A DNA stretch of 64,000 nt from a bacterium (GTDB lineage: Bacteria > Patescibacteriota > Patescibacteriia > JBAXGH01). The notes below the pieces were generated by a model that worked only from the letters and a program-made list of their open reading frames with translations, searched no databases and was not told the origin of the DNA. Shown here in pieces: positions 3,878 through 63,221 of this stretch; position 1 is the stretch's first letter, and each line of letters opens with the position of its first letter. The stretch spans positions 7,514 through 71,513 of the forward strand of contig JBAXGH010000004.1 of NCBI GenBank assembly GCA_037139515.1, given 5' to 3'. Both the position numbers and the translations under genes were made by a program.

Positions 3878-4099
3878 ATGCCAACCACAAAGACAAGATT
3901 AGCGCTTTCGCTTGATTATGACTTGGAAAAAGCTCTCGAGCAAGTAGCTCGAAAGGCTAATGTTCCGGTTGCAACAAAAGCTCTCGAACTACTTCGGGAA
4001 GCTTTGGAGATTCAGGAAGATGTTTTGCTTGCACAGCTTGCGGAAGAACGCATGGCAGGAAAAATCAAATGGCTGAAACATGATTCGATATGGAAATAA
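3878..4099 (+). CDS. RelB/DinJ-type RHH antitoxin
   Basis: KTRLALSLDYDLEKALEQVARKANVPVATKALELLREALE. It overlaps the downstream RelE gene by 10 nt. A GGTGTATCACC palindrome lies at 3847-3857, just upstream. Confidence 0.75.
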   Translation: MPTTKTRLALSLDYDLEKALEQVARKANVPVATKALELLREALEIQEDVLLAQLAEERMAGKIKWLKHDSIWK

Positions 4100-7376: not shown

Positions 7377-7640
7377 GTGCAAAGGGAGGAAGCGATGAAG
7401 CAATTGGTGCAGGACCCGGTGCGGATTGCCCGCGAAACCGGCGGGTGTACGTTTGAGCCGGGGTTGGGGTGGTGGGCTTTCTCAAAGAGTCCGTTGCCCG
7501 GAGCGAAGTTGTTGCATAACAACAATCGGGCACGTTTCTTTATGCCCACCTTGACCCGCAATGGGCGCAAGATCAGCCACAAGCCGCCGCAGGATTGGAC
7601 CGGTGTTTCAGGTTTGCGCGAGGCGCGCTTTGCGGTGTGA
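7377..7640 (+). CDS. Small hypothetical protein. A second small overlapping ORF at 7595/7718-7828 is possible.
   Basis: AGGGAGGA ribosome-binding site 6 nt upstream of the ATG, and a promoter upstream. The region is higher-GC. Weak. Confidence 0.35.
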   Translation: MQREEAMKQLVQDPVRIARETGGCTFEPGLGWWAFSKSPLPGAKLLHNNNRARFFMPTLTRNGRKISHKPPQDWTGVSGLREARFAV

Positions 7641-11531: not shown

Positions 11532-11562
11532 CGCCTTGAGGTGACTCAAGGCGTTTTTTTGT
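11532..11562 (+). terminator. Intrinsic terminator
   Basis: cgccttgaggtgactcaaggcg hairpin followed by TTTTTTTGTT. Confidence 0.65.
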
Positions 11563-11576
11563 TAACTTTATTCGTC

Positions 11577-11613
11577 AAAAACCAAAAGCCGGCATAGAGC
11601 GCCGGCTTTTGGT
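11577..11613. terminator. Bidirectional terminator hairpin (14-bp stem)
   Basis: aaccaaaagccggc...gccggcttttggtt, with T-rich sequence on both strands. Confidence 0.5.
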
Positions 11614-11742
11614 TTATTCTTCTTCGTCCTCGTCATCTTCCTCTTCCGCCTCCGCTTCGATCTCTTCAAGGTTTTCTTCTTCGTCGAGTCCTGGCTCTTC
11701 AGGCTTCTTTGCTGCTGGATCTATGAACTTATCGTCTGCCAT
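11614..11742 (-). CDS. Tiny acidic protein (42 aa), MADDKFIDPAAKKPEEPGLDEEE...
   Basis: Open frame with strongly biased D/E composition. The ERIC-like element begins 8 bp upstream of the start. Weak. Confidence 0.3.
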   Translation of the reverse strand: MADDKFIDPAAKKPEEPGLDEEENLEEIEAEAEEEDDEDEEE

Positions 11743-11749
11743 AAATTTT

Positions 11750-11910
11750 AAGTCTGTTACCATATAAGCTCCAACCCAAAATGATAGCTTTCGGCAAACT
11801 CTAGGCGAAAAATTTTTAGCTTAGCAGGGGCTAAACGAAAAATTTTGTCGCCGTCGATTTTGCTCGAAATCTATCATTTTGTCTAAGAAGCTTATATGGC
11901 AACAGACTTA
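11750..11910. repeat. Rod-like palindromic element, copy 1 (ERIC/MITE-like or structured RNA)
   Basis: Terminal inverted repeats taagtctgttaccatataagct / aagcttatatggcaacagactta, with nested complementary halves. A second copy at 45781-45980 shows compensatory changes. Confidence 0.6.
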
Positions 11911-11989
11911 TAGTTAATTTTGTAACTCGGCATATAATACAAAACCAAGCGAAATTTTTCAAAGCCCATTTTCCACAGCCTGTTCACAT

Positions 11990-12170
11990 ATGGCCAGCGC
12001 AAAATAAAATCGCAGGCCTTCCACGCCCCTGAACGCGATTCGCACCATTCTTCCCTTGAAAAAATTCTCAATGTATCTCGATACACCTCAAATTTTTTCA
12101 AGCTCCAGAATGGTGCGACTCATCATTCATCGGCGCGGAATACCTACGATTTTATTTTGCGCTGGCCATT
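11990..12170. repeat. ~180-bp imperfect palindrome centred at ~12078
   Basis: The arms atggccagcgcaaaataaaatcg... and ...cgattttattttgcgctggccat are complementary, as are inner segments. Centre is gtatctcgatac. It is immediately upstream of the membrane-protein gene at 12191. Confidence 0.5.
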
Positions 12171-12190
12171 GGTGCTATAATGTACTCAAT

Positions 12191-12607
12191 ATGATTAGGG
12201 GGAAAAAACTGCTGAAGAAGCGCAAGCTATCTTTGATTGAAAAACTTTACGTGCAACATGCTCATCCGATAAATCTCATCATGACGCTTGTCGGCATTAT
12301 GTGGGGCGTCTACTTTTTGTGGCTGCAAAACATTTTACTCGCGGCGATTTTCGCTTTCGGGTTCATGATTATTGGACATGCTTCTGTTTGGGGTGAAAAC
12401 GAAGATGGTTTAGCGGAAACCTGGCTTGGTAAAATCATGATTTTGCACTCGCACCCAATCAATACTCTTTTTCATCTCGTCGGAACGTTTATTGTCGCCG
12501 TGGGATTGTATTCTAACGTCATCGAGATGATTATGTGGGGCGTAACGATACTGTTATTCGGCCATTTGTGGGGCTGGAGCCGCGTGCATTTACTCGGAGA
12601 AGAATAA
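12191..12607 (+). CDS. Small polytopic membrane protein
   Basis: Start chosen at MIRGKK, downstream of TATAAT. Repeated HPIN..L(V/F)G motifs and hydrophobic segments. Confidence 0.5.
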   Translation: MIRGKKLLKKRKLSLIEKLYVQHAHPINLIMTLVGIMWGVYFLWLQNILLAAIFAFGFMIIGHASVWGENEDGLAETWLGKIMILHSHPINTLFHLVGTFIVAVGLYSNVIEMIMWGVTILLFGHLWGWSRVHLLGEE

Positions 12608-12612
12608 AAAAT

Positions 12613-15255
12613 ATGCCGCAGAGCGCATGGCACTCGATGTCGGTGCGAGCGGTTTTTGAGGCGCAAAAAACGAGTGCGTCCGGGCTCGCACAAAAAGAGG
12701 CGGAAAGCCGGCTTTTTAAGTTTGGTCCGAACTCATTGCCTGCGGATCATCACGAAACGTGGTTGCGGATATTTTTGCGACAGTTTGCAAGCCCGCTCAT
12801 ATTTATTTTGATTTTGTCAGCCTTCGCGGTTTTGTGGCTTGGCGATACGACCGACGCTTATATAATTTTCGGGGTTTTGTTTTTCAATGCCTGCATCGGC
12901 GCAATTCAGGAAGGAAAAGCAGCACGCTCACTTGAAGCTTTGAAACGTTTGGTCGTGGTTGAAGCGACGGTTTTGCGCGATGGCAAGGAAGTTCGTCTGA
13001 AAGATGAGCAAGTTGTGCCCGGCGACGTGCTGGTTTTGCGTGAGGGCGAAAGAATTTCGGCTGATGCGCGTCTGATTTTCGCGCGCGAGTTTCAGGTTGA
13101 TGAGGCGATGATGACCGGAGAATCATTGCCGGCGAGAAAGTCCGCGGAGGCCTCTATTTCGGAGAATGCTGCCGTTGCCGACCGTCGCGATATGGTTTTT
13201 CGTGGTACTTACGTGGTTTCCGGTTCGGCTAAGGCTGTTGTTGTTGAAACCGGTCTGAATACGGTAATCGGAACGCTCGCGAAGTCACTTACGGTTCCTG
13301 ATACGGAAATGCCTCTTAAGGCAACGCTCGCAAAATTAACTGCTGTAATTGGTGCCGTTGTAGCGATCTGCATGGCGCTTCTGTTTGCTCTGGGACTTGC
13401 GCGCGGGCTTCCTCTGCGAGAGGTTTTCACCATCGCCGTTTCACTCGCAGTTTCGATTATTCCGGAGGGTCTGCCGATTGTGCTCACTATAATTCTTGCT
13501 TCCGGAGTTTGGCGCATGGCTCGCAAGCACGTTCTGGTGCGTAAATTACAGGCCGTGGAGGCGCTCGGACGGGCGACGGTGCTTGCGGTTGATAAAACCG
13601 GCACGATTACGCGTAATGAGCTGATGGTTGAGCGCGTAATTGCATCTGGCACGCGATATGACGTTCAAGGCTCTGGATATCATGCCAAGGGCGAGGTCTT
13701 GTTTGAGGGAAAAGCTCTTTCGAAGTCACAGCGCTCGGAAATAGAGATGATTGGAATCGCAGCATCGGCCTGTGCCGGCGCGGAACTTATTCATGATATT
13801 AAAACTGATACCTGGAAAGTGGTTGGTGATCCGACGGAGGCGGCGCTCGGAGTTTTTGCGCGCAAGCTTGGGATAGAAAAAAAGAAACTTCGGGTTTTAG
13901 ACGTGCTGCCATTTTCATATAACGAAAAAATGCAGGCGGTCGAAATCATGATTGGTTCGGAAAGAAAGCTTCTTGTTATCGGGGCGCCCGAAACTATTTT
14001 GAAGCGCACCGGTTTAAGCGCAAATGATCGAAAAGATTTTGAACGCGATTTTCTTTCGATGTCTGATGAGGGCCTGCGCGTTGTGGCGGTCGCAGTTGCG
14101 GAGCGGCCGGAAAAATTGCACTTTAACGAAATAAAAAAACTTACATTTTTGGGTTTTATCGGCATGAACGATAGTATTCGGCGCGAGGCGAGTGAGGCGG
14201 TCGCGCGCTGTTCAAAAGCCGGGGTTAAAATCGTGATGATAACCGGGGATCATCTTCGAACCGCCGAAGCGATTGCGCGTAAAGTGGGTATATTGCGCGT
14301 TCACGACGCCGTGATGACGGGTTATGAACTTGATACGATGACCGAAAAAGAATTCGCGCGCCTGCTTCCGCGCGTTACGGTTTTTGCGCGCATGACTCCG
14401 GAGCATAAACTTCGAATCATAAAAAAATATCGCGAATTAGGTGAGATTGTGGCTATGACGGGCGATGGCGTGAACGATGTGCCGTCGCTCGTTGCGGCGG
14501 ACCTGGGAGTCGCGATGGGCGGAATCGGAACCGACGTAACAACTTCGGCGGCCGAGGTTGTGCTTACGAATGATAACTTCGCTAACTTGATTGTCGGAAT
14601 TGAAGAGGGGCGTCACATGTATTCGGCCTTCAAAAAAGTCACGCTATATTTATTCTCAACTAATTTAGGCGAGGCACTTACAATTATCGGAGCTTTGTTT
14701 ATCGGCATGCCTTTACCTTTACTTGCGGCTCAAATCATCTGGTTAAATCTTGTAACGGATACTTTTTTGGATGTTTCACTCGCTATGGAACCTAAAGAAG
14801 AAGGGCTTTTGAATCGAGCACCGCGACTTGCGGGTGATGATTTTTTGAACAAGTCTGCGTTGCGTAGAATGTTTCTCATGGCCTTTGTGATGGCTTCCGG
14901 AACTTTGCTTGTGTTTAATTCTTATTCTTCCAGAAACCCCGAACTTGCTCTCACAATGTCACTCGTGACACTCGCAATTTTCCAGTGGTTCAATGTTTGG
15001 AACTGTCGATCGGAAACCAAGTCTGTTTTTGAGATTTCGCCGGTTTCTAATCGGCCGCTCTTAGCTGCGTTTTTGGTCGTGATTGGTTTGCAGCTCGCAG
15101 CGGTATATTTTTCGCCGCTTCAAAAAATTCTGCACACAGCACCGCTTACCGCAAGCGATTGGCTGCTCGCTATTTTTGTCGCACTTTCAATTATTGTAGT
15201 TGAAGAGGTTCGAAAGGGGATAGCGCGGCGAAAAAGAAAATCAGCTCTCGTTTGA
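12613..15255 (+). CDS. P-type cation-transporting ATPase (type II, Ca2+/Mg2+-like)
   Basis: A DKTGTIT phosphorylation motif, the MTGDGVNDVPSL hinge, TGES and GPNSLP. Confidence 0.85.
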   Translation: MPQSAWHSMSVRAVFEAQKTSASGLAQKEAESRLFKFGPNSLPADHHETWLRIFLRQFASPLIFILILSAFAVLWLGDTTDAYIIFGVLFFNACIGAIQEGKAARSLEALKRLVVVEATVLRDGKEVRLKDEQVVPGDVLVLREGERISADARLIFAREFQVDEAMMTGESLPARKSAEASISENAAVADRRDMVFRGTYVVSGSAKAVVVETGLNTVIGTLAKSLTVPDTEMPLKATLAKLTAVIGAVVAICMALLFALGLARGLPLREVFTIAVSLAVSIIPEGLPIVLTIILASGVWRMARKHVLVRKLQAVEALGRATVLAVDKTGTITRNELMVERVIASGTRYDVQGSGYHAKGEVLFEGKALSKSQRSEIEMIGIAASACAGAELIHDIKTDTWKVVGDPTEAALGVFARKLGIEKKKLRVLDVLPFSYNEKMQAVEIMIGSERKLLVIGAPETILKRTGLSANDRKDFERDFLSMSDEGLRVVAVAVAERPEKLHFNEIKKLTFLGFIGMNDSIRREASEAVARCSKAGVKIVMITGDHLRTAEAIARKVGILRVHDAVMTGYELDTMTEKEFARLLPRVTVFARMTPEHKLRIIKKYRELGEIVAMTGDGVNDVPSLVAADLGVAMGGIGTDVTTSAAEVVLTNDNFANLIVGIEEGRHMYSAFKKVTLYLFSTNLGEALTIIGALFIGMPLPLLAAQIIWLNLVTDTFLDVSLAMEPKEEGLLNRAPRLAGDDFLNKSALRRMFLMAFVMASGTLLVFNSYSSRNPELALTMSLVTLAIFQWFNVWNCRSETKSVFEISPVSNRPLLAAFLVVIGLQLAAVYFSPLQKILHTAPLTASDWLLAIFVALSIIVVEEVRKGIARRKRKSALV

Positions 15256-15260
15256 GGGCT

Positions 15261-15285
15261 GATTTTCTTAGCGGGTAAAGGGATT
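15261..15285. repeat. Direct repeat copy of the tRNA-Gly 3' end plus flank (gattttcttagcgggtaaaggga)
   Basis: Identical 23-mer at 15460-15482, which is the real tRNA 3' end. The copies are separated by a 174-bp GC-rich segment. Confidence 0.55.
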
Positions 15286-15436
15286 TCCGCCTAGCCGCGC
15301 GGAGCCCTTGGCGCGGCGTCGTTGTCCTGGGCAGCGGCAAAGCAAAGCCATTTGCTTTGCCGGCGCTCCGCGTCGGCCGCGTCACGCGGCCTAGCGTCGA
15401 CTTCTGCCCGTTCGACTCCTATTTCCGCAAATAAGA

Positions 15437-15460
15437 AAATCAACCTTCAAAAGAAGGTTG
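15437..15460 (-). terminator. Intrinsic terminator downstream of tRNA-Gly
   Basis: tcaaccttcaaaagaaggttga hairpin, followed on the minus strand by TTTTCTTATTT. Confidence 0.5.
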
Positions 15461-15468
15461 ATTTTCTT

Positions 15469-15540
15469 AGCGGGTAAAGGGAGTCGAACCCTTGTGTAGG
15501 GTTTGGAAAACCCCCATAATAACCGTTATATGATACCCGC
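15469..15540 (-). tRNA. tRNA-Gly (anticodon UCC)
   Basis: Manual fold: acceptor stem GCGGGTA/TACCCGC, anticodon loop TTTCCAA, T-loop TTCGACT, discriminator U. CCA is not encoded. Confidence 0.8.
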
Positions 15541-15593
15541 ATGGGTATTTTTCTGTTTCGAAATTATACTCAAAGGTGGTTTTTTCGTCTAGT

Positions 15594-15977
15594 CTATGTT
15601 CGTCCGCAACTTTGGCATCTGGTTCCGTATGGTGAGGTGAAGCCGGTCATCGAGCCGTCATTGGCTTTTTGGCAGGTCAGGCAGTAGCTCTGTGCGATTT
15701 TATTGAAAATACAGATATAGCGCGGTTGACCGCTATCAAGCCTCGGCCCGTTTACAATGTGATGGTTCTTTAATAGGGTCAGTTCCTGAACGACTGAATT
15801 TCGGGTTAGGTGGAAACCTTTTCTAAATAGAAGAACTCGAATTTCTTCGATGCCGAAAGCGCGACTCTTAATTGCGAGGATTGAAATCAGCTCGCTTCTA
15901 AGCGGGCTCAGCGCATAGCCGGCATTCTGAAGTTTTCGCAAGATCAAGTTTGCAATCATACTAATCGTATTATACAA
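15594..15977 (-). CDS. Fur-family transcriptional regulator
   Basis: A winged-helix N-terminus (SPLRSELISIL...NSVVQELTLLKNHHIV) and a C-terminal HH/Cys cluster (CLTC...CQSC). Confidence 0.65.
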   Translation of the reverse strand: MYNTISMIANLILRKLQNAGYALSPLRSELISILAIKSRAFGIEEIRVLLFRKGFHLTRNSVVQELTLLKNHHIVNGPRLDSGQPRYICIFNKIAQSYCLTCQKANDGSMTGFTSPYGTRCQSCGRT

Positions 15978-16002
15978 AAATCACAGTTTCCTGTGACTCT
16001 TG

Positions 16003-16079
16003 TGGTCGGGCTGCCGAGACTTGAACTCGGAACCTTCTGCTCCCAAAGCAGACGCGATAGCCAATTACGCTACAGCCCG
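16003..16079 (-). tRNA. tRNA-Pro (anticodon UGG), CCA encoded
   Basis: Manual fold: C1-G72 acceptor stem, anticodon loop TTTGGGA, T-loop TTCAAGT, discriminator A, then CCA. Confidence 0.8.
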
Positions 16080-16305
16080 ATGATATGAGTGTTGCAGTTT
16101 TGTGGTCGGCGCGAATACGAGCCGCGAAGCGGCAGAATCCGGAACGATGACGACGAAAATAGCAATTTTCGATCGTTAGCGGAACGGATTCGAATCGCGA
16201 AGCGATTAAGTATTCGCGTTGCGGTTTCAAAAGTATTACCGAATGAAGCTGGGATGTATCGAGCAGGGCTCGATACACTCCTACCTTTTAAAAACCGCAT
16301 TCCTG

Positions 16306-16377
16306 TGCCGAAGGGCAGAGTCGAACTGCCTACGCCTGCCTCTTCAGGGCAGCGCTCTACCGGTGAGCTACTTCGGC
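16306..16377 (-). tRNA. tRNA-Phe (anticodon GAA)
   Basis: Manual fold: acceptor stem GCCGAAG/CTTCGGC, anticodon loop CTGAAGA, T-loop GTTCGACT, discriminator A. Confidence 0.8.
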
Positions 16378-16452
16378 AAGGGAATACGGTTTTTGATTGT
16401 GCCGTGACTGTCCCAAGGTCAGCCGATAACAGGTATGTTATCACCTAACCCT

Positions 16453-16528
16453 GGTGGGCGTGCCAAGAATCGAACTTGGGACCTCGTCATTATCAGTGAC
16501 GCGCTCTAACCATCTGAGCTACACGCCC
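16453..16528 (-). tRNA. tRNA-Ile (anticodon GAU), CCA encoded
   Basis: Manual fold: acceptor stem GGGCGTG/CACGCCC, anticodon loop CTGATAA, T-loop TTCGATT. It is not adjacent to the 16S gene. Confidence 0.8.
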
Positions 16529-16874
16529 GTGTTGTGAGTGATGTGGCCTGGGAGTTTTTACGCTAAATTCACGCAGTGAATTTTTATTGAACGATTGTGA
16601 TAGCCGAAAGCTTGCTTTCGAGCTATTCACAAGCGGTCAATAATTTCGCCGCAGGCGATTAGGCGTAAAAAAGTTTTGGCCGATTTCCGAACCGCGCGGC
16701 GGGTATCGATTGCAAGGCAATCGATACCTCTAGACTCCCGTCAAGATCCCTCGGCTTCGGGATGACAGCAAGGAGGGGATGGTGAATGGAAGGACTCTGC
16801 TTTTAGCCCGACTATCCTATCAAAACCTCGTCAGACAGGCAAGATGCGTGACGGGTCTGCTATAATAGTGGTCT

Positions 16875-18650
16875 ATGGAGGCAAAAAAGGAGGTTAAAAA
16901 TGGTGAAATATTCAAGTTCTTTTTTAAGCATGCCTGGCGATACAAACTTGCCTGTATCTGCTCGTTTTTAGTAGTTACCTTGGCCGTCTCAGGTGATTTA
17001 ATGTCACCTTGGTTCCAGAAAAATTTATTTGATCTGCTCACGAAAAATTCGCCCTCAAAAGAACTGCTGGGCGCTCTCGCGGTTGCTCTCGCCTGGGTAT
17101 TTGCCGCACGCATGATCGGTTGGGTAGGTTGGCGCTCATGGGGCTTTCTTCAGGTTTGGTTTCAGCCGAAAGTCATGGCTGATCTTCAGCAAACCGGTTT
17201 CGAAAACATGATCGGTCATTCGCACGACTTTTTTTCGAATGCTTTTTCCGGTTCTTTGGTTCGCAGAATTTCAAGAGTCGGGCGTGCTTTTGAAGGTGTG
17301 ATGGACGAGCTTTTTGCGAATCTATGGCCGACGGCTCTTGTAATCGTTGCCGCTCTTTTTGGCCTATATTCTCGCTTTCCAAGCCTCGCTTACATCTTCG
17401 CGGCTTTTATTGTGGTATTTATTGTTTTGAACTATCTCGCAACGATGTGGAAGATGAAGCTCGATGTGTTGCGCTCAGAAATGGATTCGAAGGTGACCGG
17501 TACGATTTCCGATGCAATCTCAAATAGTAGTGCGGTAAAGCAATATAGCGGCGAACTTTTTGAGGCCAGATTGATTCGTAATGTTTTAAATGCTTGGTCT
17601 GACCTGTATACGCGTGGCTGGCGAAGAGGTGAGTATGTGACTGCGGTTCAGGCTTTCGCTATGACAGTCATCAATATCGGAATCATGTGGTACAGCGTAA
17701 ATTTGTGGGTATCTGGAAGACTTTCAATTGGTGATTTGGTGCTGATTCAATCTTATCTTGGTATGGTCATGGATAAACTTTGGAATATCAGTCGATCATT
17801 CCGAAAAGTTTATGAGAGCCTTGCCGACGCTCGCGAAATGGTTGAAATCATAAATACCGAATACGAAGTTAAAGATGCTCAGGATGTAAAAAAACTTGCT
17901 GTAAAAGCCGGCGCCATTGAATTCCAAAATGTCGGCTTCGGTTTTAAAGAAGGTCGCAAAATACTGAAAGATTTTTCGCTTGCGATTAAGCCCGGAGAAA
18001 AAGTCGCGCTCGTCGGTCCATCGGGTGCCGGAAAATCGACGGTCACAAAGTTGTTGTTCCGCTTGTACGATATTCAAAAAGGCCAAATCATGATCGATGG
18101 TCAGGATATCGCGCAGGTGACGCAAAAAAGTTTGCGTGAAAATATCGCGCTCGTGCCGCAGGAGCCGGCGCTTTTCCATCGCACTCTTCGCGATAATATT
18201 CGCTATGGTCGCCGCAATGCGACGGATAAAGAAATCATCGAGGCAGCCAAAAAAGCGCATTGTCACGAGTTTATTTCAAAGCTTAAAGATGGCTATGATA
18301 CTTTCGTCGGCGAACGCGGCATAAAATTATCGGGCGGCGAAAGACAGCGCGTCGCAATCGCGCGAGCTATCTTAAAAGATGCGCCGATTTTGGTGCTCGA
18401 CGAAGCAACTTCAAGTCTAGATTCCGAATCCGAGCGTTTGATTCAGGACGCGCTACACGAATTAATGAAAGGCAAGACTTCAATCGTAATCGCGCACAGG
18501 CTTTCGACGGTTATGGAAATGGATCGGATTATCGTAGTTGAAAACGGTGAAGTGAAAGCGACCGGTACACACGATGAATTGCTCGGTGAAAAAGGCATGT
18601 ATCGAAAGCTCTGGAATATTCAGGTTGGCGGGTATGCCGGGAACGGTTGA
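16875..18650 (+). CDS. ABC exporter, fused permease and ATPase (MsbA/MdlB-like)
   Basis: An N-terminal six-TM region, Walker A GPSGAGKST, the signature LSGGERQRVAIARAIL and Walker B ILVLDEATSSLD. Confidence 0.85.
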   Translation: MEAKKEVKNGEIFKFFFKHAWRYKLACICSFLVVTLAVSGDLMSPWFQKNLFDLLTKNSPSKELLGALAVALAWVFAARMIGWVGWRSWGFLQVWFQPKVMADLQQTGFENMIGHSHDFFSNAFSGSLVRRISRVGRAFEGVMDELFANLWPTALVIVAALFGLYSRFPSLAYIFAAFIVVFIVLNYLATMWKMKLDVLRSEMDSKVTGTISDAISNSSAVKQYSGELFEARLIRNVLNAWSDLYTRGWRRGEYVTAVQAFAMTVINIGIMWYSVNLWVSGRLSIGDLVLIQSYLGMVMDKLWNISRSFRKVYESLADAREMVEIINTEYEVKDAQDVKKLAVKAGAIEFQNVGFGFKEGRKILKDFSLAIKPGEKVALVGPSGAGKSTVTKLLFRLYDIQKGQIMIDGQDIAQVTQKSLRENIALVPQEPALFHRTLRDNIRYGRRNATDKEIIEAAKKAHCHEFISKLKDGYDTFVGERGIKLSGGERQRVAIARAILKDAPILVLDEATSSLDSESERLIQDALHELMKGKTSIVIAHRLSTVMEMDRIIVVENGEVKATGTHDELLGEKGMYRKLWNIQVGGYAGNG

Positions 18651-36150: not shown

Positions 36151-36954
36151 TTAGAGCTTAGCGATATCTTTTTGGGACTTACGCCACTCTGCTATCTTTG
36201 CATGATCGCCGGACATCAAAACTTCCGGGACTTTCCATTTTTTATAAACCGCCGGTCGCGTGTACTGCGCGGATTCAAGCACGCCCGGAGTGTTATGAGA
36301 TTCTTCGGTGAGTGATTCGGCGGCGCCCAAGACTCCAGGGATTTGGCGGGCGACGGCATCAATTACAACGAGTGCCGGTAATTCGCCACCGGTTAAAACA
36401 TACGGTCCGATACAAATTTCTTCGTCGATAAGATTTTCCGCGACGCGTTCGTCGATGCCTTCATAGCGACCGCAGAGCATCGTGATGCGTTTATATTTCG
36501 AAAGTCGCATGGCGTCTTGTGCGGTGAATGGTTTGCCTTTCGCTGAAAATAAAATCACGCGTTCAGTTTTTTTGCCGCGCTTGGCTTTGATTGCTTTGAG
36601 TGCGAGATCGAAAGGCTCGACGCGCATGACCATGCCCGGCCCGCCGCCGAAGGGTTTATCATCAACCGACTGATAATTGTTGCCCGACCAGTCACGCAAA
36701 TTATGGGCCGTGACTTTAATCAAGCCAGTGCCGGTTGCCCGACCGATGATGGAAACGCTTGTATACGGAGTAATTACTTCGGGTAAAATGGTTAGGACGT
36801 CGAAAGTTAATTTAGGCCGTAGGCCACAGGCCGTAGGGCGTAGGGCAACGTTTCGAAAAGTAGTACTATGGCCTACGGCCTGCAGCCTACGGCCTAGTAT
36901 TGATTTTTTGTTTTCTTGCTTTCTTGATTTTTTTGTCATAGTAAACTTGTTCAC
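36151..36954 (-). CDS. trmD: tRNA (guanine37-N1)-methyltransferase TrmD with a repeat-encoded N-terminal extension
   Basis: The core from LTFDVLTILPEVITPY to the C-terminus matches TrmD. The first ~47 codons overlap the GGCCGTAGG palindromic repeat, and no canonical start lies right at the core. Confidence 0.8.
   Translation of the reverse strand: MNKFTMTKKSRKQENKKSILGRRLQAVGHSTTFRNVALRPTACGLRPKLTFDVLTILPEVITPYTSVSIIGRATGTGLIKVTAHNLRDWSGNNYQSVDDKPFGGGPGMVMRVEPFDLALKAIKAKRGKKTERVILFSAKGKPFTAQDAMRLSKYKRITMLCGRYEGIDERVAENLIDEEICIGPYVLTGGELPALVVIDAVARQIPGVLGAAESLTEESHNTPGVLESAQYTRPAVYKKWKVPEVLMSGDHAKIAEWRKSQKDIAKL
36813..36897. repeat. ~85-bp palindrome built from GGCCGTAGG-family repeats, inside the trmD 5' region
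   Basis: ggccgtaggccacaggccgtagggcgtaggg (36815-36845) and the inverted partner ggcctacggcctgcagcctacggcc (36870-36894). Confidence 0.65.
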
Positions 36955-38554: not shown

Positions 38555-39058
38555 TTACGCTTTTGGAGCTTCGGCGGCCGGAGCTTCCGGAGCCGGAGTT
38601 GGGGCCGGAGCGGCGGCGGCTGCTTCTGCAGCGGCTTTGGCATCGGCCTTAGCCTGAGCTTCCGCTTCCTTTGCAGCTTTGGCCTCAGCGTCGGCTTTTT
38701 CCTTGGCGGCGGCAGCGGCTTTCACCTTAGCTTCAGCTTCGGCGACGGCTTTGCCCTTGGTTTCCGCAATCTTTGCGGTACGTTCCTTGGACATGCGAAT
38801 CGTCTTGGCTTTTTCGCCCTTGATGACTTTCATGTCAATCAAGAGGTTGCGCACGGTGTCGGTCGGCTGAGCACCTTTTTCGATCCAGTATTTGATGCGG
38901 TCGATGTTGAACTTGACGTTGCCGTCTTTGGCGCGAGGATCCATGGTACCGAGGTTCTCCATGTAATCACCCCACGGGTCAGCGGTCTTTTCAAGAACCA
39001 CGAGACGGAACTGAGGCATTTTCTTTTTGCCGAAGCGGGCGAGTTTGATAGCGAGCAT
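38555..39058 (-). CDS. rpsP: 30S ribosomal protein S16 with a C-terminal Ala/Lys/Glu-rich extension
   Basis: The MLAIKLARFGKKKMPQFRLVV start is diagnostic for S16. The tail is encoded by GC-rich low-complexity repeats. Confidence 0.85.
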   Translation of the reverse strand: MLAIKLARFGKKKMPQFRLVVLEKTADPWGDYMENLGTMDPRAKDGNVKFNIDRIKYWIEKGAQPTDTVRNLLIDMKVIKGEKAKTIRMSKERTAKIAETKGKAVAEAEAKVKAAAAAKEKADAEAKAAKEAEAQAKADAKAAAEAAAAAPAPTPAPEAPAAEAPKA

Positions 39059-40721: not shown

Positions 40722-40786
40722 ATAGATATGTTTTTACTAATTCTGCAGTGAAAAACCGCAAATGTCAATCGCCGCCGTGAAAAATT

Positions 40787-40825
40787 CGCTTAAAATGCTC
40801 GGGACTGTCCCCAGCATTTTAAGCG
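40787..40825. terminator. 39-bp palindrome CGCTTAAAATGCTCGGGACTGTCCCCAGCATTTTAAGCG (GGGACWGTCCC family). Probable terminator.
   Basis: Near-perfect inverted repeat. A second copy at 63093-63131 has compensatory swaps. It lies after the gene at 40888-41154 on the minus strand. Confidence 0.55.
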
Positions 40826-40887
40826 AAAAAAATCGGGGCGTGGCTCGCGGCATTTTCATGGCCGCGAGTTCGTTTCCCGTTTCGAAC

Positions 40888-42040: not shown

Positions 42041-42565
42041 TTAGCGTCCGGAGGAGATGATTGCGTTCTCTTCGGGCGTCATTTCGCCGAAGAGTCGCGG
42101 GCAGTCCTTCCAGCCTTCGTGACCATGGAGACCGCCGAGCGCGTCTCCGACGCGGATGCAGTTGTCCTGGGCGCGGCGCCCGGTCGCGTGCAAGAGCGCC
42201 TGCGAGCGCAGGCTCTGCTTTGTGCGCTCGGGGTCGGCCTTCTCGCGCGCCAGACCAGTCTCGCATTCCTCGAGGATCTTCGTGGCCGCGTACCAGACCC
42301 GCGTCAGGGCGTCCAGCTTCCGGTGCAGTTTGAGAAGCCTTTCGCGGCTGCAGGGGCCGTCTTCCTTGGCTCCGACGAGCGGGCACGCCGTCGCCAGAAA
42401 CACCTGGCGCTTTGTGCTCTCGTCATCCCGTTCGAGAGCGTCGATGCTCTCGACAATCTTCTCGTACTTGGCCACGCATTGCAATGCGAGAGCCGACGGC
42501 TCTGCGGCTGGGTTGGACTCTGGTGCTGCGGCGAGGAAACTGACGACAAAAACGAATTGAAGCAT
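42041..42565 (-). CDS. Secreted hypothetical protein, higher-GC
   Basis: AGGGAGGA ribosome-binding site and a signal peptide MLQFVFVVSFLAAAP. The overlapping ORF at 41955-42386 is R/P-rich and judged spurious. Confidence 0.55.
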   Translation of the reverse strand: MLQFVFVVSFLAAAPESNPAAEPSALALQCVAKYEKIVESIDALERDDESTKRQVFLATACPLVGAKEDGPCSRERLLKLHRKLDALTRVWYAATKILEECETGLAREKADPERTKQSLRSQALLHATGRRAQDNCIRVGDALGGLHGHEGWKDCPRLFGEMTPEENAIISSGR

Positions 42566-42632: not shown

Positions 42633-43763
42633 TCAAGGCTTGAGCTTATTATCGGCGCCGATGGCTTCGGAGATATTTTTAAACCCGTCACGCTTCAAAA
42701 GCTCAATCAATCCGGCATTGATCTCGCCGACTAACTGTGGTCCTTCAAAAATCATACCCGTAATGAGTTGGAGCAGGGAAGCGCCGGCGCGAATTTTTAG
42801 GTAAGCATCTTCGGCGCTAAAAATGCCGCCGCAACCGACAAGCGTAAATCGCGAACCGTATTTTTTATATAAGTGTGAGAGTTGAGCGTTGGCTTTTTCT
42901 TCGACGAGTTTTCCGGAAAGTCCACCGTGAGTCGGGCGCAGCGCCTCGGGAACGGCTTCGTAGGTTTTGGTGAGATTGCTCGAAATCAAGCCTTGAATTC
43001 GGTGGCGCGCGGCGACATCGATCAGCGAATCAAGCTGTTCAAACGTCAGATCCGGTGAAAGTTTTATAAAGATAGGCCGTGGGCCGTAGGCCGTAGGGCG
43101 TAGGGAAACATTTTCGAGCGCAGTGAGCAGCTTTTCTAAGCGCGGGGCATCATTAAAAGGTTGGCCGCCGAATGCATTCGGGCAGCTGATATTGATTGTT
43201 ATGTAATCAGCGGTATCTTTTACGGCTTCCAGGGCGGCGCCATAGTCCGCAATCGCGGCTTCGTCTTCGGCGGTTTCGGCGCAATTAGTTTTAGCGATAC
43301 TTACTCCGACCGGAAAACGATGAGACACGGCGTGTAAACGAACCGCGACATTCGCCGCGCCTTCGTTCTTTAAACCATACCAAACCACAAGTGATTGCTG
43401 ATCTTTGAGGCGCCAGAGCCGCGGTTTTGGATTTCCCGCGCAGGTTTTTCCTGTGACTGATCCGGCTTCCATAAAGCCGAATCCAACGTCAGGCAAAATA
43501 TTTAAAAGATGAGCGTCTTTATCAAAACCGGCGGCGAGTCCAACCGGATTTTTAAATTCAAGTCCGCGAATATTTTGGACGAGCGACGGGTCTTCGATAT
43601 GAAAAGCTAAGCGAGTGAAAAATCGAGTCACCGAAAAGCGCCCGAGAAACTCGCCGAGGTGAGTCATCGAATCATGAACATCTTCCGGGTCGCGGCGAAA
43701 GAAAAGCGGTTTGGCTAGATTTTTGTAAATGAATCGTGATGTGGCGTGAAAAACTTTTTTCAT
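42633..43763 (-). CDS. pyrD: Dihydroorotate dehydrogenase (quinone type) carrying an in-frame repeat insertion
   Basis: A DHOD family-2 layout (NPVGLAAGFDKDAHLLNILPDVGFGFMEAGSVTGKTCAGNPKPRLWRL; GGIFSAEDAYLKIRAGASL). The segment SLRPTAYGPRPI is encoded by the GGCCGTAGG repeat at 43075-43105. Confidence 0.85.
   Translation of the reverse strand: MKKVFHATSRFIYKNLAKPLFFRRDPEDVHDSMTHLGEFLGRFSVTRFFTRLAFHIEDPSLVQNIRGLEFKNPVGLAAGFDKDAHLLNILPDVGFGFMEAGSVTGKTCAGNPKPRLWRLKDQQSLVVWYGLKNEGAANVAVRLHAVSHRFPVGVSIAKTNCAETAEDEAAIADYGAALEAVKDTADYITINISCPNAFGGQPFNDAPRLEKLLTALENVSLRPTAYGPRPIFIKLSPDLTFEQLDSLIDVAARHRIQGLISSNLTKTYEAVPEALRPTHGGLSGKLVEEKANAQLSHLYKKYGSRFTLVGCGGIFSAEDAYLKIRAGASLLQLITGMIFEGPQLVGEINAGLIELLKRDGFKNISEAIGADNKLKP
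43075..43105. repeat. GGCCGTGGGCCGTAGGCCGTAGGGCGTAGGG repeat, in frame within pyrD
   Basis: The same 31-mer family occurs at 36815-36845 and 62008-62037. Confidence 0.65.
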
Positions 43764-45780: not shown

Positions 45781-45980
45781 TAAGCCTGTTGCCATTTAAG
45801 CTCCAGCTCAAAATGGTAGCTTTCGGCAAACTCTAGGTAAAATATTTTTACCCTTCTACTTATGTTAAATAAGTCGGGTACCCTGTGGCTTAGCTATGGC
45901 TAAACAAAAAATATTTTACCGTCGACTTTGCTCGAAATCTACCTATTTTTATCAGGAAGCTTAAATGGCAACAGGCTTAC
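45781..45980. repeat. Rod-like palindromic element, copy 2
   Basis: Perfect 22-bp terminal inverted repeats, taagcctgttgccatttaagct and its reverse complement. Internal complementary halves. Homologous to 11750-11910. Confidence 0.6.
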
Positions 45981-58496: not shown

Positions 58497-58733
58497 ATGA
58501 ACCTTCGTAAAACACTTTTTTGGGACACTGATGTTAAGACAATCAGTTTAAATCGGAACGCTCGATATATTATCGAGCGGGTTTTGGAATTCGGTAATGA
58601 TCGAGAGGTACGTTGGCTTACGAAAGAGTATGGGCGTCGTAAAATCAGAAATGCGGTTCTGGCCAGTCGCTCGCTTGATCGTAAAAGTCGTGCTTTATGG
58701 CTACTTCTCACGGAAAAGAAAACTGGCAAGTAA
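58497..58733 (+). CDS. Small protein upstream of AbiEii. Putative cognate antitoxin.
   Basis: 78 aa, overlapping the nucleotidyltransferase gene by 37 nt. Assigned by position only. Confidence 0.35.
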   Translation: MNLRKTLFWDTDVKTISLNRNARYIIERVLEFGNDREVRWLTKEYGRRKIRNAVLASRSLDRKSRALWLLLTEKKTGK

Positions 58734-59374
58734 AAGTTATGCCGGTCGCGACCAGGCGCGCCCTGGATTTTTTTGCTTCCAAAAAATGGATGCGTGCCTC
58801 TGGGTGGTATTTGGCGGGTGGTACGGCCTTGGCTTTAGCCTGCGGCCATAGGCGCTCGGTGGATTTGGATTTTTTTCAAGCAAAGCCTTTCTCGACTGAT
58901 AGTTTGTTGCGTCACCTGAATACTGACAAGCTTTGGAAGACAGAAAAAATAGAAGAAAACACGGTACATGGATCTTTTGGTGGTGCCAAAATAAGTTTCA
59001 TGACCAACTCATCGTTTCGCCCGGCTTTTTCTTTTGGAGAATATGGCATGGTGCGTATATTAGATGAACGAGATGTCGCCGCGACCAAATTAATTTCCGT
59101 GAGTCAGCGTGGAAAAAAGCGGGATTTCGTTGATCTATTTTGGTATGCTAAAAATCGGGAACCACTTCGGACACTTTTTAATCGTTTTGCAATGCAGTAT
59201 CCCGATGTCGGACGTAATTTTCACCACATAATAAAAAGTTTGGTATATTTTGAGGATGCGGAACGCGATCCGATGCCGCTTGTAAATTTTGCGGTGACCT
59301 GGAAAGAAATAAAAACCTCATTTGTAAAAGATGCTTCCGAACTGTCGCGTGATTTACTTGGTGTTGAGTTATAA
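58697..59374 (+). CDS. AbiEii/DUF1814-family nucleotidyltransferase (type IV TA toxin-like)
   Basis: LAGGTALALACGHRRSVDLDFF is an NTase-fold GS..D.D motif typical of AbiEii. Confidence 0.6.
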   Translation: MATSHGKENWQVKVMPVATRRALDFFASKKWMRASGWYLAGGTALALACGHRRSVDLDFFQAKPFSTDSLLRHLNTDKLWKTEKIEENTVHGSFGGAKISFMTNSSFRPAFSFGEYGMVRILDERDVAATKLISVSQRGKKRDFVDLFWYAKNREPLRTLFNRFAMQYPDVGRNFHHIIKSLVYFEDAERDPMPLVNFAVTWKEIKTSFVKDASELSRDLLGVEL

Positions 59375-61918: not shown

Positions 61919-63073
61919 ATGAACCTCGATTCAACGACGCTCCGATATATTGCCGTGGCTTTGACCGCTCTCGCCGGAGGACTCTATTGGTTTTGGAATC
62001 GCGGTGAGGCCGTAGGCCATCGGCCGCAGGGCGTAGGAGTGCTCAAAAATCTTACCGAACTTGCAAAAACCGGGGCGCTTGATGCCGTCATCGGTCGCGA
62101 TGATGAGATCGATCGCATTATCCAAATCATCCAGCGACGCACCAAAAATAATCCTTTATTGCTTGGCGACCCGGGAGTAGGGAAGACGGCTATCGTTGAA
62201 GGTCTCGCAGTTCGAATCATTAAAAACAATGTTCCGAAGGCTTTACAGGGAAAACAGATATTTGAACTTTCGGTCGCCGAACTGATTGCCGGCACCAAAT
62301 ATCGCGGAGAATTTGAGGAGCGCTTACGTGGCGTTATGAAGGAATTAGAGAAGGCTCCGCGTCAGACGATTTTGTTTGTTGATGAGATTCATCTACTCGA
62401 GCAAACCAAGGGCGCCGAGGGCGCAGTTTCGGCTTCCGATGTTTTGAAGCCAGCGCTTGCTCGTGGTGATGTTTCGATTATCGGTGCCACGACACTCAAA
62501 GAATACGAAGAATATATTCGCCCGAACACGGCGCTCGATCGTAGGTTTCAACCGGTTTTGGTTGCTGAACCGACTCCGGAAGCGGCGCTTGCTGTGCTTC
62601 GTGGTATCGCAAACTTATACGAGAAGCATCACGACGTGATTATCGACGACGACGCGCTTGAAGCCGCGGTCACGCTTTCGATTGAAAAATTAAAGGGTCG
62701 TCGTTTGCCGGACAAAGCGATTGATATCATCGACGAAGCTTCGGCCAAGGTCGCGATTGAAATGCAGGGCGCGCACGCAACGGCCATCGGTGTTATGCAT
62801 GCTGCCGCTGAGAAGTCTCGCGAGAGAGCCGCCAAAGAACGCCAGGATATCGGATTCGAAACCAAGCATTTAGAGGAGTTGTCGAAGAAGTATCCCGGCG
62901 ATCCGGCTCTCATGAGCGCGGAGAAAACCCTGCAGAGACATGAAGCAGAGCTCGCGGTCGTGGCTTCGGCGCGGGTTTCGGACGATGGTCGGGCGCGGGT
63001 TTTGCGCAAAGACGTGGAAGAAGTCATCGCCGCCTGGGCGGATCTTGGAAAAGCCGAGGAAAAATCAAAATAA
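61919..63073 (+). CDS. Clp/Hsp100 D1-type AAA+ ATPase (single domain, membrane-anchored) with an in-frame repeat
   Basis: LDAVIGRDDEIDRIIQIIQRRTKNNPLLLGDPGVGKTAIVEGLAVRI...GTKYRGEFEERL matches ClpA/B D1. N-terminal TM segment. EAVGHRPQGVGV is encoded by the 62008-62037 repeat. Confidence 0.7.
   Translation: MNLDSTTLRYIAVALTALAGGLYWFWNRGEAVGHRPQGVGVLKNLTELAKTGALDAVIGRDDEIDRIIQIIQRRTKNNPLLLGDPGVGKTAIVEGLAVRIIKNNVPKALQGKQIFELSVAELIAGTKYRGEFEERLRGVMKELEKAPRQTILFVDEIHLLEQTKGAEGAVSASDVLKPALARGDVSIIGATTLKEYEEYIRPNTALDRRFQPVLVAEPTPEAALAVLRGIANLYEKHHDVIIDDDALEAAVTLSIEKLKGRRLPDKAIDIIDEASAKVAIEMQGAHATAIGVMHAAAEKSRERAAKERQDIGFETKHLEELSKKYPGDPALMSAEKTLQRHEAELAVVASARVSDDGRARVLRKDVEEVIAAWADLGKAEEKSK
62008..62037. 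repeat. GGCCGTAGGCCATCGGCCGCAGGGCGTAGG repeat, in frame within the Clp-like gene
   Basis: Third member of the 31-bp GGCCGTAGG family. Confidence 0.6.
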
Positions 63074-63092
63074 AGTATTTTTTCGCTTTTTT

Positions 63093-63131
63093 CGCTTAAA
63101 ATGCTGGGGACAGTCCCGGGCATTTTAAGCG
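63093..63131 (+). terminator. 39-bp palindrome CGCTTAAAATGCTGGGGACAGTCCCGGGCATTTTAAGCG plus T-tract. Terminator of the Clp-like gene.
   Basis: Second copy of the 40787-40825 palindrome, followed by GTTTTTTATTG. Confidence 0.6.
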
Positions 63132-63221
63132 GTTTTTTATTGTTTCTCCCTGTTGACAAGGGTGAGCCGTTGTGATAGCAATTAGCGCAGTAACCCGTGG
63201 AGGGAATCCAAGGAGGAAGGC

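Follow-up and report, generated by a model that had tools for sequence, protein, structure and literature searches.

A duplicated tRNA-Gly(UCC) 3′ end around a small, GC-rich, gene-free segment of a Patescibacteria chromosome: a possible integration scar

The locus described here lies in a window of 64,000 nt, the whole stretch of DNA that was analysed, taken from the forward strand (positions 7,514 to 71,513) of contig JBAXGH010000004.1 of the Patescibacteriota assembly GCA_037139515.1. A gene for a P-type (Ca2+/HAD-IC) ATPase on the plus strand converges there with an intact tRNA-Gly(UCC) gene on the minus strand, a strand left unstated in the account previously made from the letters alone (the sequence-only reading). 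The space between the two genes contains two hairpins, a second copy of the tRNA's 3′ end, a GC-rich segment referred to as the filler, and an inverted, degenerate piece resembling the same tRNA end. The coordinates of all features are given in Table 1. The tRNA-Gly gene is the final member of a minus-strand cluster in the order Ile-Phe-Pro-(small gene)-Gly. In this cluster (15469-16528), CCA is encoded by tRNA-Ile and tRNA-Pro and not by tRNA-Phe or tRNA-Gly. The window as a whole is ordinary Patescibacteria chromosome, with RpoC, RuvC, TrmD, RNase III, dihydroorotate dehydrogenase (DHODH) and a 16S rRNA gene.

Table 1 Features between and around the ATPase and tRNA-Gly genes, in window positions.
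Feature	Coordinates	Strand	Basis or remark
P-type (Ca2+/HAD-IC) ATPase gene	12535-15255	+	Open reading frame; Pfam domains
Hairpin 1: 16-bp stem, 4-nt loop, T-tracts on both sides	15234-15270		Inverted repeat
Core copy 1 (attR-like)	15260-15283		Repeat search
Displaced tRNA-Gly 3′ fragment	15270-15283	-	Identical to 15469-15482 of the intact gene
GC-rich filler, 126 nt, 69.8% GC	15284-15409		Composition scan; inverted repeats
Inverted degenerate tRNA-Gly 3′-end-like piece, GTTCGACTCCTATTTCCGCAAA	15410-15431	+	Inverted repeat; self-BLAST
Hairpin 2: perfect 17-bp stem, 4-nt loop, T-tracts on both strands	15432-15469		Inverted repeat
Core copy 2 (attL-like)	15459-15482		Part of the hairpin 2 base and of the intact tRNA gene
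tRNA-Gly(UCC), intact, no encoded CCA	15469-15540	-	ARAGORN; Rfam tRNA model, 57 bits
Sigma-70-like tRNA-Gly promoter: TAGACG, 17-nt spacer, TATAAT	15563-15591	-	

The central feature of the locus is an exact 24-nt repeat, TGATTTTCTTAGCGGGTAAAGGGA, referred to as the core, which has only two copies in the window. The copies are separated by 199 nt from start to start, with 175 nt in between. The nearest other 24-mers of the window differ from the core at 7 positions, and the chance expectation for exact 24-mer repeats in the window is about 7e-6. Read on the tRNA strand, the core comprises the 3′-terminal 14 nt of the tRNA (T-loop nt 60, the 3′ strand of the T-stem, the 3′ strand of the acceptor stem and the discriminator U) followed by 10 nt of trailer. 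The exact duplication of the tRNA end reported in the sequence-only reading is therefore real and was correctly located, with three corrections: it is made up of 14 + 10 nt and not 15 + 8 nt, the exact copies have the boundaries of Table 1 and not 15261-15285 and 15460-15482, and the reported distance of 175 bp is that between the copies rather than from start to start. The displaced tRNA fragment, at 14 nt too short for tRNA calling, lies 185 nt from the intact gene. A search of the window that tolerated at most 2 mismatches in 13 nt found only these two copies; the nearest other 14-mers carry 3 mismatches and have no tRNA context.

Ungapped alignment extended the repeat to 56 nt at 80% identity (15228-15283 versus 15427-15482), and beyond both ends similarity was random (4/30 and 7/30). 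Mismatches within these 56 nt are unevenly distributed, with 0/24 in the core versus 11/32 in the adjoining flank (Fisher p = 0.0013). Of the 21 flank matches, 10 fall in the descending arm, where they complement the ascending arm within the core, and any hairpin standing on the core must carry them. The other 22 flank positions are 50% alike, and the hairpin loops differ at all 4 positions. A drifting duplication fits this uneven pattern less well than does an attachment site (att) core whose arms are non-homologous, and the seemingly compensatory differences between the hairpins are most simply explained by two different hairpins standing on one fixed 10-nt base. A plain tandem duplication of a 199-nt unit was rejected because 15284-15426 shows no relation to 15483-15625. 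Also rejected was a larger island delimited by another copy of the core, as no third copy is present in the window.

With T-tracts on both strands, the two hairpins look like bidirectional intrinsic terminators. Hairpin 1 was predicted to fold with -23.4 kcal/mol on the plus strand, including one G·U pair, and with -19.0 kcal/mol on the minus strand, with a C·A mismatch; it is thus more stable as ATPase-sense than as tRNA-sense RNA. Hairpin 2 is symmetric in this respect (-22.2 and -22.8 kcal/mol on the two strands). It begins at the tRNA discriminator base and is the predicted terminator of the present tRNA-Gly gene, in agreement with the earlier statement that the interval closes with the tRNA's own terminator. 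Neither hairpin was picked up by a simple terminator scan; pairing between the A- and T-tracts, which makes the stem longer, is the apparent reason.

As had been noted, the repeat does follow on the end of the ATPase gene, whose stop codon (15253-15255) sits in the loop region of hairpin 1. The final codons of the gene (…RRKRKSALV-stop) come from the ascending arm and loop of the hairpin. The resulting C-terminus, VEEVRK followed by GIARRKRKSALV, matches that of homologues in length and in its basic tail, for example …VEEIRKFFYRRRRKI and …VEEIRKFFARRRISYI. Since a normal ATPase tail is encoded by the A-rich arm of hairpin 1, the hairpin and the adjoining tRNA fragment would represent the original chromosome. 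Judged in this way, the ATPase end, hairpin 1 and the displaced fragment look like the native side of the locus.

Mobile elements commonly integrate into tRNA genes, and the locus belongs to an ordinary type of feature. The tRNA fragments left by integration are pervasive (PMC9897764). In the Islander definition, an island is flanked by a regenerated tRNA gene (tDNA) and, in the same orientation, by a displaced fragment that is usually 3′; the crossover lies at the anticodon loop, the T loop or the T/acceptor junction; and the island contains an integrase gene and is 2-200 kb in length (PMC4383910). The present locus has an intact tDNA and its cognate fragment in the same orientation, with the inner boundary at T-loop nt 60. 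The interval is only 175 nt long and contains no tyrosine integrase. Because the identity block starts at tRNA nt 60, the crossover would fall in the T-stem-region class of attP sites, a class that accounts for 1836 of 3919 islands (PMC4383910). The locus shares with tDNA islands an interior of foreign composition and a still-functional tRNA (a prediction here), whereas the islands are 2-200 kb with an integrase and the locus is 175 bp and gene-free. With a probability of about 0.5, it is read as a degraded integration footprint at the 3′ end of tRNA-Gly(UCC), arranged as attL, remnant and attR. This att-type duplication of a tRNA end is unusually small and gene-less, and it comes from a lineage that has been poorly sampled.

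What was observed is the repeat with its boundaries, the composition, both hairpins and the native end of the ATPase gene; from these we infer an integrase, a direction of events and a deletion, in the following order. The ATPase and tRNA-Gly genes would first have converged on hairpin 1 as a shared bidirectional terminator. An arriving element would have carried an attP identical over 24 bp to the tRNA's last 14 nt and the first 10 nt of its trailer, and recombination, presumably by a tyrosine integrase, would have occurred inside this block, at the T-stem/acceptor junction. The tRNA gene would thereby have been rebuilt with a 3′ end and a terminator (hairpin 2) from the element, and the original 3′ end would have been kept beside hairpin 1 and the ATPase gene, 199 bp off. 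A later deletion would have removed nearly the whole element and left 175 bp, namely the palindromic filler, the inverted tRNA-end-like piece and hairpin 2. Today hairpin 1 would end the ATPase mRNA and hairpin 2 would end tRNA-Gly. Because the descending arm of hairpin 2 must complement the core, the hairpin pair would acquire its compensatory look. Removal of one repeat unit from the sequence gives ATPase-hairpin 1-tRNA-Gly, a compact convergent pair with one terminator, and this arrangement is plausible as the ancestral attB. The empty attB junction would then read …GTTTGAGGGC/TGATTTTCTTAGCGGGTAAAGGGA/GTCGAACCC… and the junction of the excised circle …AAAAGAAGGT/core/TTTCCGCCTAGCC….

Several findings weigh against an integration footprint. 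The interval of 175 bp is far below usual island sizes (2-200 kb in PMC4383910) and is too short for an integrase gene. The inverted degenerate tRNA-end copy to the left of hairpin 2 is atypical for att sites, and the scar model gives no account of it. Gene conversion could be an alternative cause of the exact identity of the cores, and hairpin 2, which the element is supposed to have brought, bears a weak resemblance to the terminator of tRNA-Gly in a distant relative from the Uhrbacteria (L023). The cognate integrase supposed in the sequence-only reading was looked for with Pfam in 30 window open reading frames (ORFs), including all of 224-520 aa, and no integrase (PF00589) was found; 10 hypothetical window ORFs scanned again with PHROGs and NCBIfam were also negative. 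With no close relative of this lineage available, neither an empty site nor a full-length element could be shown. Additionally, the insert and the core match nothing in the viral, metagenome, phage or plasmid collections. The viral contigs gave no match to the tRNA 3′ half, the trailer-containing core or three insert strings, and a 16-mer gave five chance matches there, all without tRNA context. Core and insert strings were both absent from the metagenome contigs, and BLAST of the insert against phage genomes and plasmids returned only chance matches of 22-39 nt. The segment thus had no detectable relative in the window or in any of these collections. Of the att footprint proposed in the sequence-only reading, the orientation of the tRNA fragment, the boundary and the composition fit; an integrase and mobile-element homology were not found.

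The distance to sequenced relatives is considerable, with the nearest homologues being 51% identical for the ATPase and 56% identical for an ABC transporter. The contigs that carry the ABC-transporter homologues contain no tRNAs, and synteny is therefore lost. Scanning a genome collection that does not include the source genome with the 3′ half of tRNA-Gly returned 28 loci. The closest tRNA-Gly(UCC) genes, in three Uhrbacteria-like genomes (L003, L023 and L027), are about 86% identical and encode CCA, and each is followed by one terminator with no second fragment. In one of these, an Uhrbacteria metagenome-assembled genome (MAG; L027), an imperfect hairpin of about 130 nt, AAAAACAGCTTTACTTG…CAAGTAAAGCTGTTTTT, replaces the simple terminator after tRNA-Gly(UCC), at about 3902-4035.

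A tRNA-Gly end in use as an integration site was seen among the same loci. A single contig of a Flemingiibacterium MAG (JAZNMQ010000013.1) contains one 22-nt tRNA-Gly 3′ sequence twice: at L015 (1683-1704) it belongs to an intact tRNA-Gly and is followed by a GH25 lysin gene, and at L028 (7712-7733) it forms an orphan fragment, which lies 43 nt downstream of a gene for a tyrosine integrase (PF00589) and close to RecT and YqaJ. The L015/L028 pair marks a bona fide prophage integrated at the 3′ end of tRNA-Gly, and since the tRNA-Gly 3′ sequence that flanks it is identical to that of the present locus, this tRNA end is a real att site elsewhere. The identity block at L028 includes the T-loop, whereas that of the present locus starts later, at nt 60, and extends 10 nt into the terminator stem. 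An orphan tRNA-Gly fragment similar to that of L028 was also observed in a Candidatus Alloruminococcus genome (L002).

Apart from integration, the duplicated block could have been produced by an assembly chimera, in which two haplotypes or organisms were joined through a common tRNA end. The locus is base-for-base identical in two other public assemblies, from Logan (L001) and from the ENA (L035), with identity spanning 4.6 kb and 8.6 kb, and the contig names suggest different assemblers. The same arrangement in three assemblies therefore excludes the artefact of a single assembler, although all of them probably go back to a common read set or to related ones and are not fully independent. At 24 nt, the shared block falls short both of the k-mer length that the ENA contig name points to (k141) and of the k of 31 of the Logan assembly, which makes a false join across it unlikely. 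The flanks also run into normal genes on both sides, and a chimera is considered extremely improbable.

The filler differs clearly in composition from its surroundings, as the sequence-only reading had remarked. Its GC content is 69.8% over 15284-15409, compared with a window mean of about 48.7-48.8% and a standard deviation of 6.5% in 126-nt windows, and it thus lies about 3.3 standard deviations higher. Five places in the window have at least 68% GC, and all but the filler read as coding sequence; the other patches were for this reason rejected as instances of the same type of element. Three of those apparently coding patches (35714-35875, 38564-38698 and 42062-42411) have no Pfam, PHROG or NCBIfam match, and their products may represent foreign genes. 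No second copy of the filler is present within the window. Its six-frame translations gave no Pfam or PHROG signal, and a coding remnant such as the end of an integrase was ruled out on that basis.

The filler contains perfect palindromes at 15294-15317, 15335-15362 and 15375-15391, and a long-range 6-bp pair joins 15329-15334 to 15404-15409. All of its stems are perfect Watson-Crick palindromes with no G·U pairs, and therefore neither strand is marked as the transcribed one. On the plus strand, the two ends of the insert are able to pair at 10/13 positions. Folded without the terminators and compared with shuffled sequence, the insert gave z = -1.7 to -2.6 with RNA parameters and -2.7 to -3.6 with DNA parameters.

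Features of this kind raise the alternative that the segment is a structured RNA or 3′ untranslated region, either a small RNA or an ATPase mRNA tail made by read-through of hairpin 1, in which case the repeated hairpin and tRNA end would serve as a terminator or processing signal. A GC-rich segment in a mid-GC genome is often seen in stable RNAs, several stems are stable at the RNA z-scores given above, the plus-strand ends can pair, and the segment lies in a tRNA cluster with terminators on either side. The excess of structure over shuffled sequence is, however, modest and larger with DNA parameters, and the G·U-free palindromes favour no strand. Strong bidirectional terminators on both flanks should block transcription into the segment. 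Scans with Rfam 15 (by E-value over 13000-18000 and at gathering thresholds over the whole window) yielded four tRNAs and the 16S gene and nothing else, and no family matched the filler even at E = 10, which ruled out a known RNA family for the insert. Signal recognition particle RNA, 6S, tmRNA, YrlA, retron and T-box candidates were unsupported by Rfam, ARAGORN or the gene context. Homologues from which covariation could be assessed were not found in the metagenome contigs.

No sigma-70-like promoter faces the insert on either strand within 14900-16100, with the limit that the consensus may not fit promoters of the Candidate Phyla Radiation (CPR). Besides the tRNA-Gly promoter of Table 1, the second and last promoter-like site of this region lies at 15969-15997, upstream of the small gene of the cluster. 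That gene, of 121 aa (15594-15959, minus strand, between tRNA-Pro and tRNA-Gly), looks leaderless, with the TATAAT ending about 10 nt ahead of the ATG. Its product shows a weak Fur/winged-helix resemblance (Pfam E = 0.0098) and found no homologue but itself among 5.8 billion proteins. Taken from its sequence features, the insert is probably inert and insulated between two bidirectional terminators. These features argue against an independent RNA gene, and a structured RNA or mRNA tail is regarded as rather improbable.

The piece between the filler and hairpin 2 is an inverted copy of the tRNA-Gly 3′ end from T-loop to discriminator, about 25% diverged. The T-arm-like fragments pointed out in the sequence-only reading are present and belong to it, in the form of the string GTTCGACTCC at 15410-15419. 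A self-inverted BLAST match spans 15410-15489 with 78.6% identity over 84 columns, and the inverted piece, hairpin 2 and the real tRNA end together form a palindrome with arms of about 40 nt. Neither ARAGORN nor Rfam called the inverted piece as a tRNA.

Such a palindrome bears directly on a second alternative, a local rearrangement that required no recombinase. Template switching, slippage or short-tract gene conversion between similar A/T-based terminator hairpins would have copied a hairpin base and 14 nt of tRNA beside the ATPase terminator, the GC-rich spacer would be old intergenic DNA or filler, and the inverted copy across hairpin 2 would stem from a like event. Palindromes are nested throughout the locus, quasi-palindrome arms of about 40 nt are typical of hairpin-primed template switching, and neither an integrase (window ORFs) nor mobile-element homology (phage and plasmid searches) was found. 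Near-identical palindromic hairpins also occur at distant sites of the window. These are terminator-like hairpins of 52 nt at 40780-40831 and 63087-63138, 22 kb apart, 94% complementary and 90-94% alike; they are too similar for convergence, which suggests that terminator hairpins have been duplicated or are mobile in this genome. A rearrangement nevertheless leaves the 70% GC spacer, unlike the other non-coding DNA of the window, unaccounted for, and requires prior similarity between the two terminators. The identity boundary moreover coincides with a recognised att sublocation within tRNA genes. Since the direct copy is exact and the inverted copy about 25% diverged, two events of different age would be needed. 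On balance, a rearrangement of this kind is considered unlikely.

If the locus is an integration footprint, it has counterparts of different size among known systems. Orphan tRNA fragments are attR sites, some of which have been mis-annotated as tRNA genes (PMC9897764), and the displaced piece resembles them as a partial 3′ copy derived from insertion-site duplication. The Thermococcaceae examples described lie about 9-23 kb from the intact gene (PMC9897764), whereas the present fragment is 185 nt away. A different parallel is offered by elements that have lost their own machinery. Derivatives of integrative and conjugative or integrative and mobilizable elements (ICEs, IMEs) that are flanked by att sites and lack an integrase are known as cis-mobilizable elements (CIMEs). 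The locus is like these in its att-type flanks, in the absence of recombination and transfer genes, and in its presumed origin as a deletion derivative. The term CIME appears in PMC5704250. Described CIMEs measure kilobases, and their cognate ICE, which uses the same att site, is known, whereas the remnant is about 10-100 times smaller. Att repeats around gene-free DNA were found here; a cognate autonomous element or any related sequence was not found in the viral, metagenome, phage and plasmid collections.

The insert also recalls repetitive extragenic palindromic (REP) and miniature inverted-repeat transposable (MITE)-like elements in being GC-rich, palindromic, non-coding DNA between convergent genes and beside terminators, and in having imperfect inverted ends. 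REP and MITE elements occur as dispersed copies, whereas the insert is single in the 64 kb. Their target-site duplications are 2-14 bp or absent, compared with 24 exact nucleotides made up of a tRNA end and a terminator base. The window does contain a GC-rich repeat family, TAGGCCGTAGGCC…GTAGGGCGTAGGG, to which the insert is unrelated in sequence. Its copy at 36813-36896 is an 84-nt palindromic pair upstream of trmD, that at 43073-43113 lies in the frame of dihydroorotate dehydrogenase and encodes …SLRPTAYGPRP…, and that at 62006-62046 lies near the start of an AAA-ATPase ORF.

The small size of the interval could alternatively be original, the locus being an intact, non-autonomous, att-flanked unit of about 199 bp that was never much larger and was mobilised in trans by an integrase from another part of the genome or from a co-resident element. 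Both cores are exact, and both att sites would therefore be intact. The unit would bring its own terminator and so repair tRNA expression, and its palindromes are candidate binding sites for a recombinase or accessory protein. However, no second copy exists in the 64 kb, no match was obtained in any collection searched, and the scanned window ORFs include no integrase. To our knowledge, no described tRNA-targeting integrative unit is this small. An intact miniature unit is accordingly thought very improbable; if it is real, no smaller tRNA-targeting integrative unit would be known to us. The broader proposition that the unit of about 199 bp is either such a trans-moved miniature tRNA-Gly element or a structured RNA or DNA element of a new, tRNA-linked kind whose palindromes act as binding sites is also highly doubtful.

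If the integration reading is correct, the locus preserves a small trace of earlier traffic of mobile elements at a tRNA gene of the Patescibacteria (CPR), in a lineage without sequenced close relatives. The incoming element would in that case have supplied a replacement terminator as well as a replacement tRNA 3′ end, and its terminator would have been forced to co-vary with the att core in a manner that mimics compensatory evolution. For annotation, a 14-nt tRNA fragment next to palindromic, GC-rich filler may pass for a small RNA gene, and caution is advised. The locus opens no long-standing question.

Some further features of the window were recorded. Immediately upstream of the ATPase gene, about 1 kb (11540-12535) contains no ORF of at least 70 aa by a crude longest-ORF filter. 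This region includes an inverted repeat with 49-nt arms that are 84% complementary (11985-12033 and 12126-12174), and two segments of 11749-11887 recur 34 kb away (45781-45955) with 76-87% identity. A full-length 16S rRNA gene (33424-34920, minus strand) is not followed by a 23S gene; a short terminator and then a 299-aa ORF without family match come after it. A CCGCCC-GAAA-GGGCGG hairpin ends both the 16S gene and the 299-aa ORF. This duplicated terminator was rejected as a parallel to the tRNA-Gly locus, as the two sites have just a 6-bp GC stem and its GAAA loop in common, without any duplicated rRNA fragment. Lastly, a gene for an AbiEii-type nucleotidyltransferase toxin of a type IV toxin-antitoxin system, a kind associated with defence and mobile elements, lies at 58697-59374 (plus strand) in an otherwise core region.

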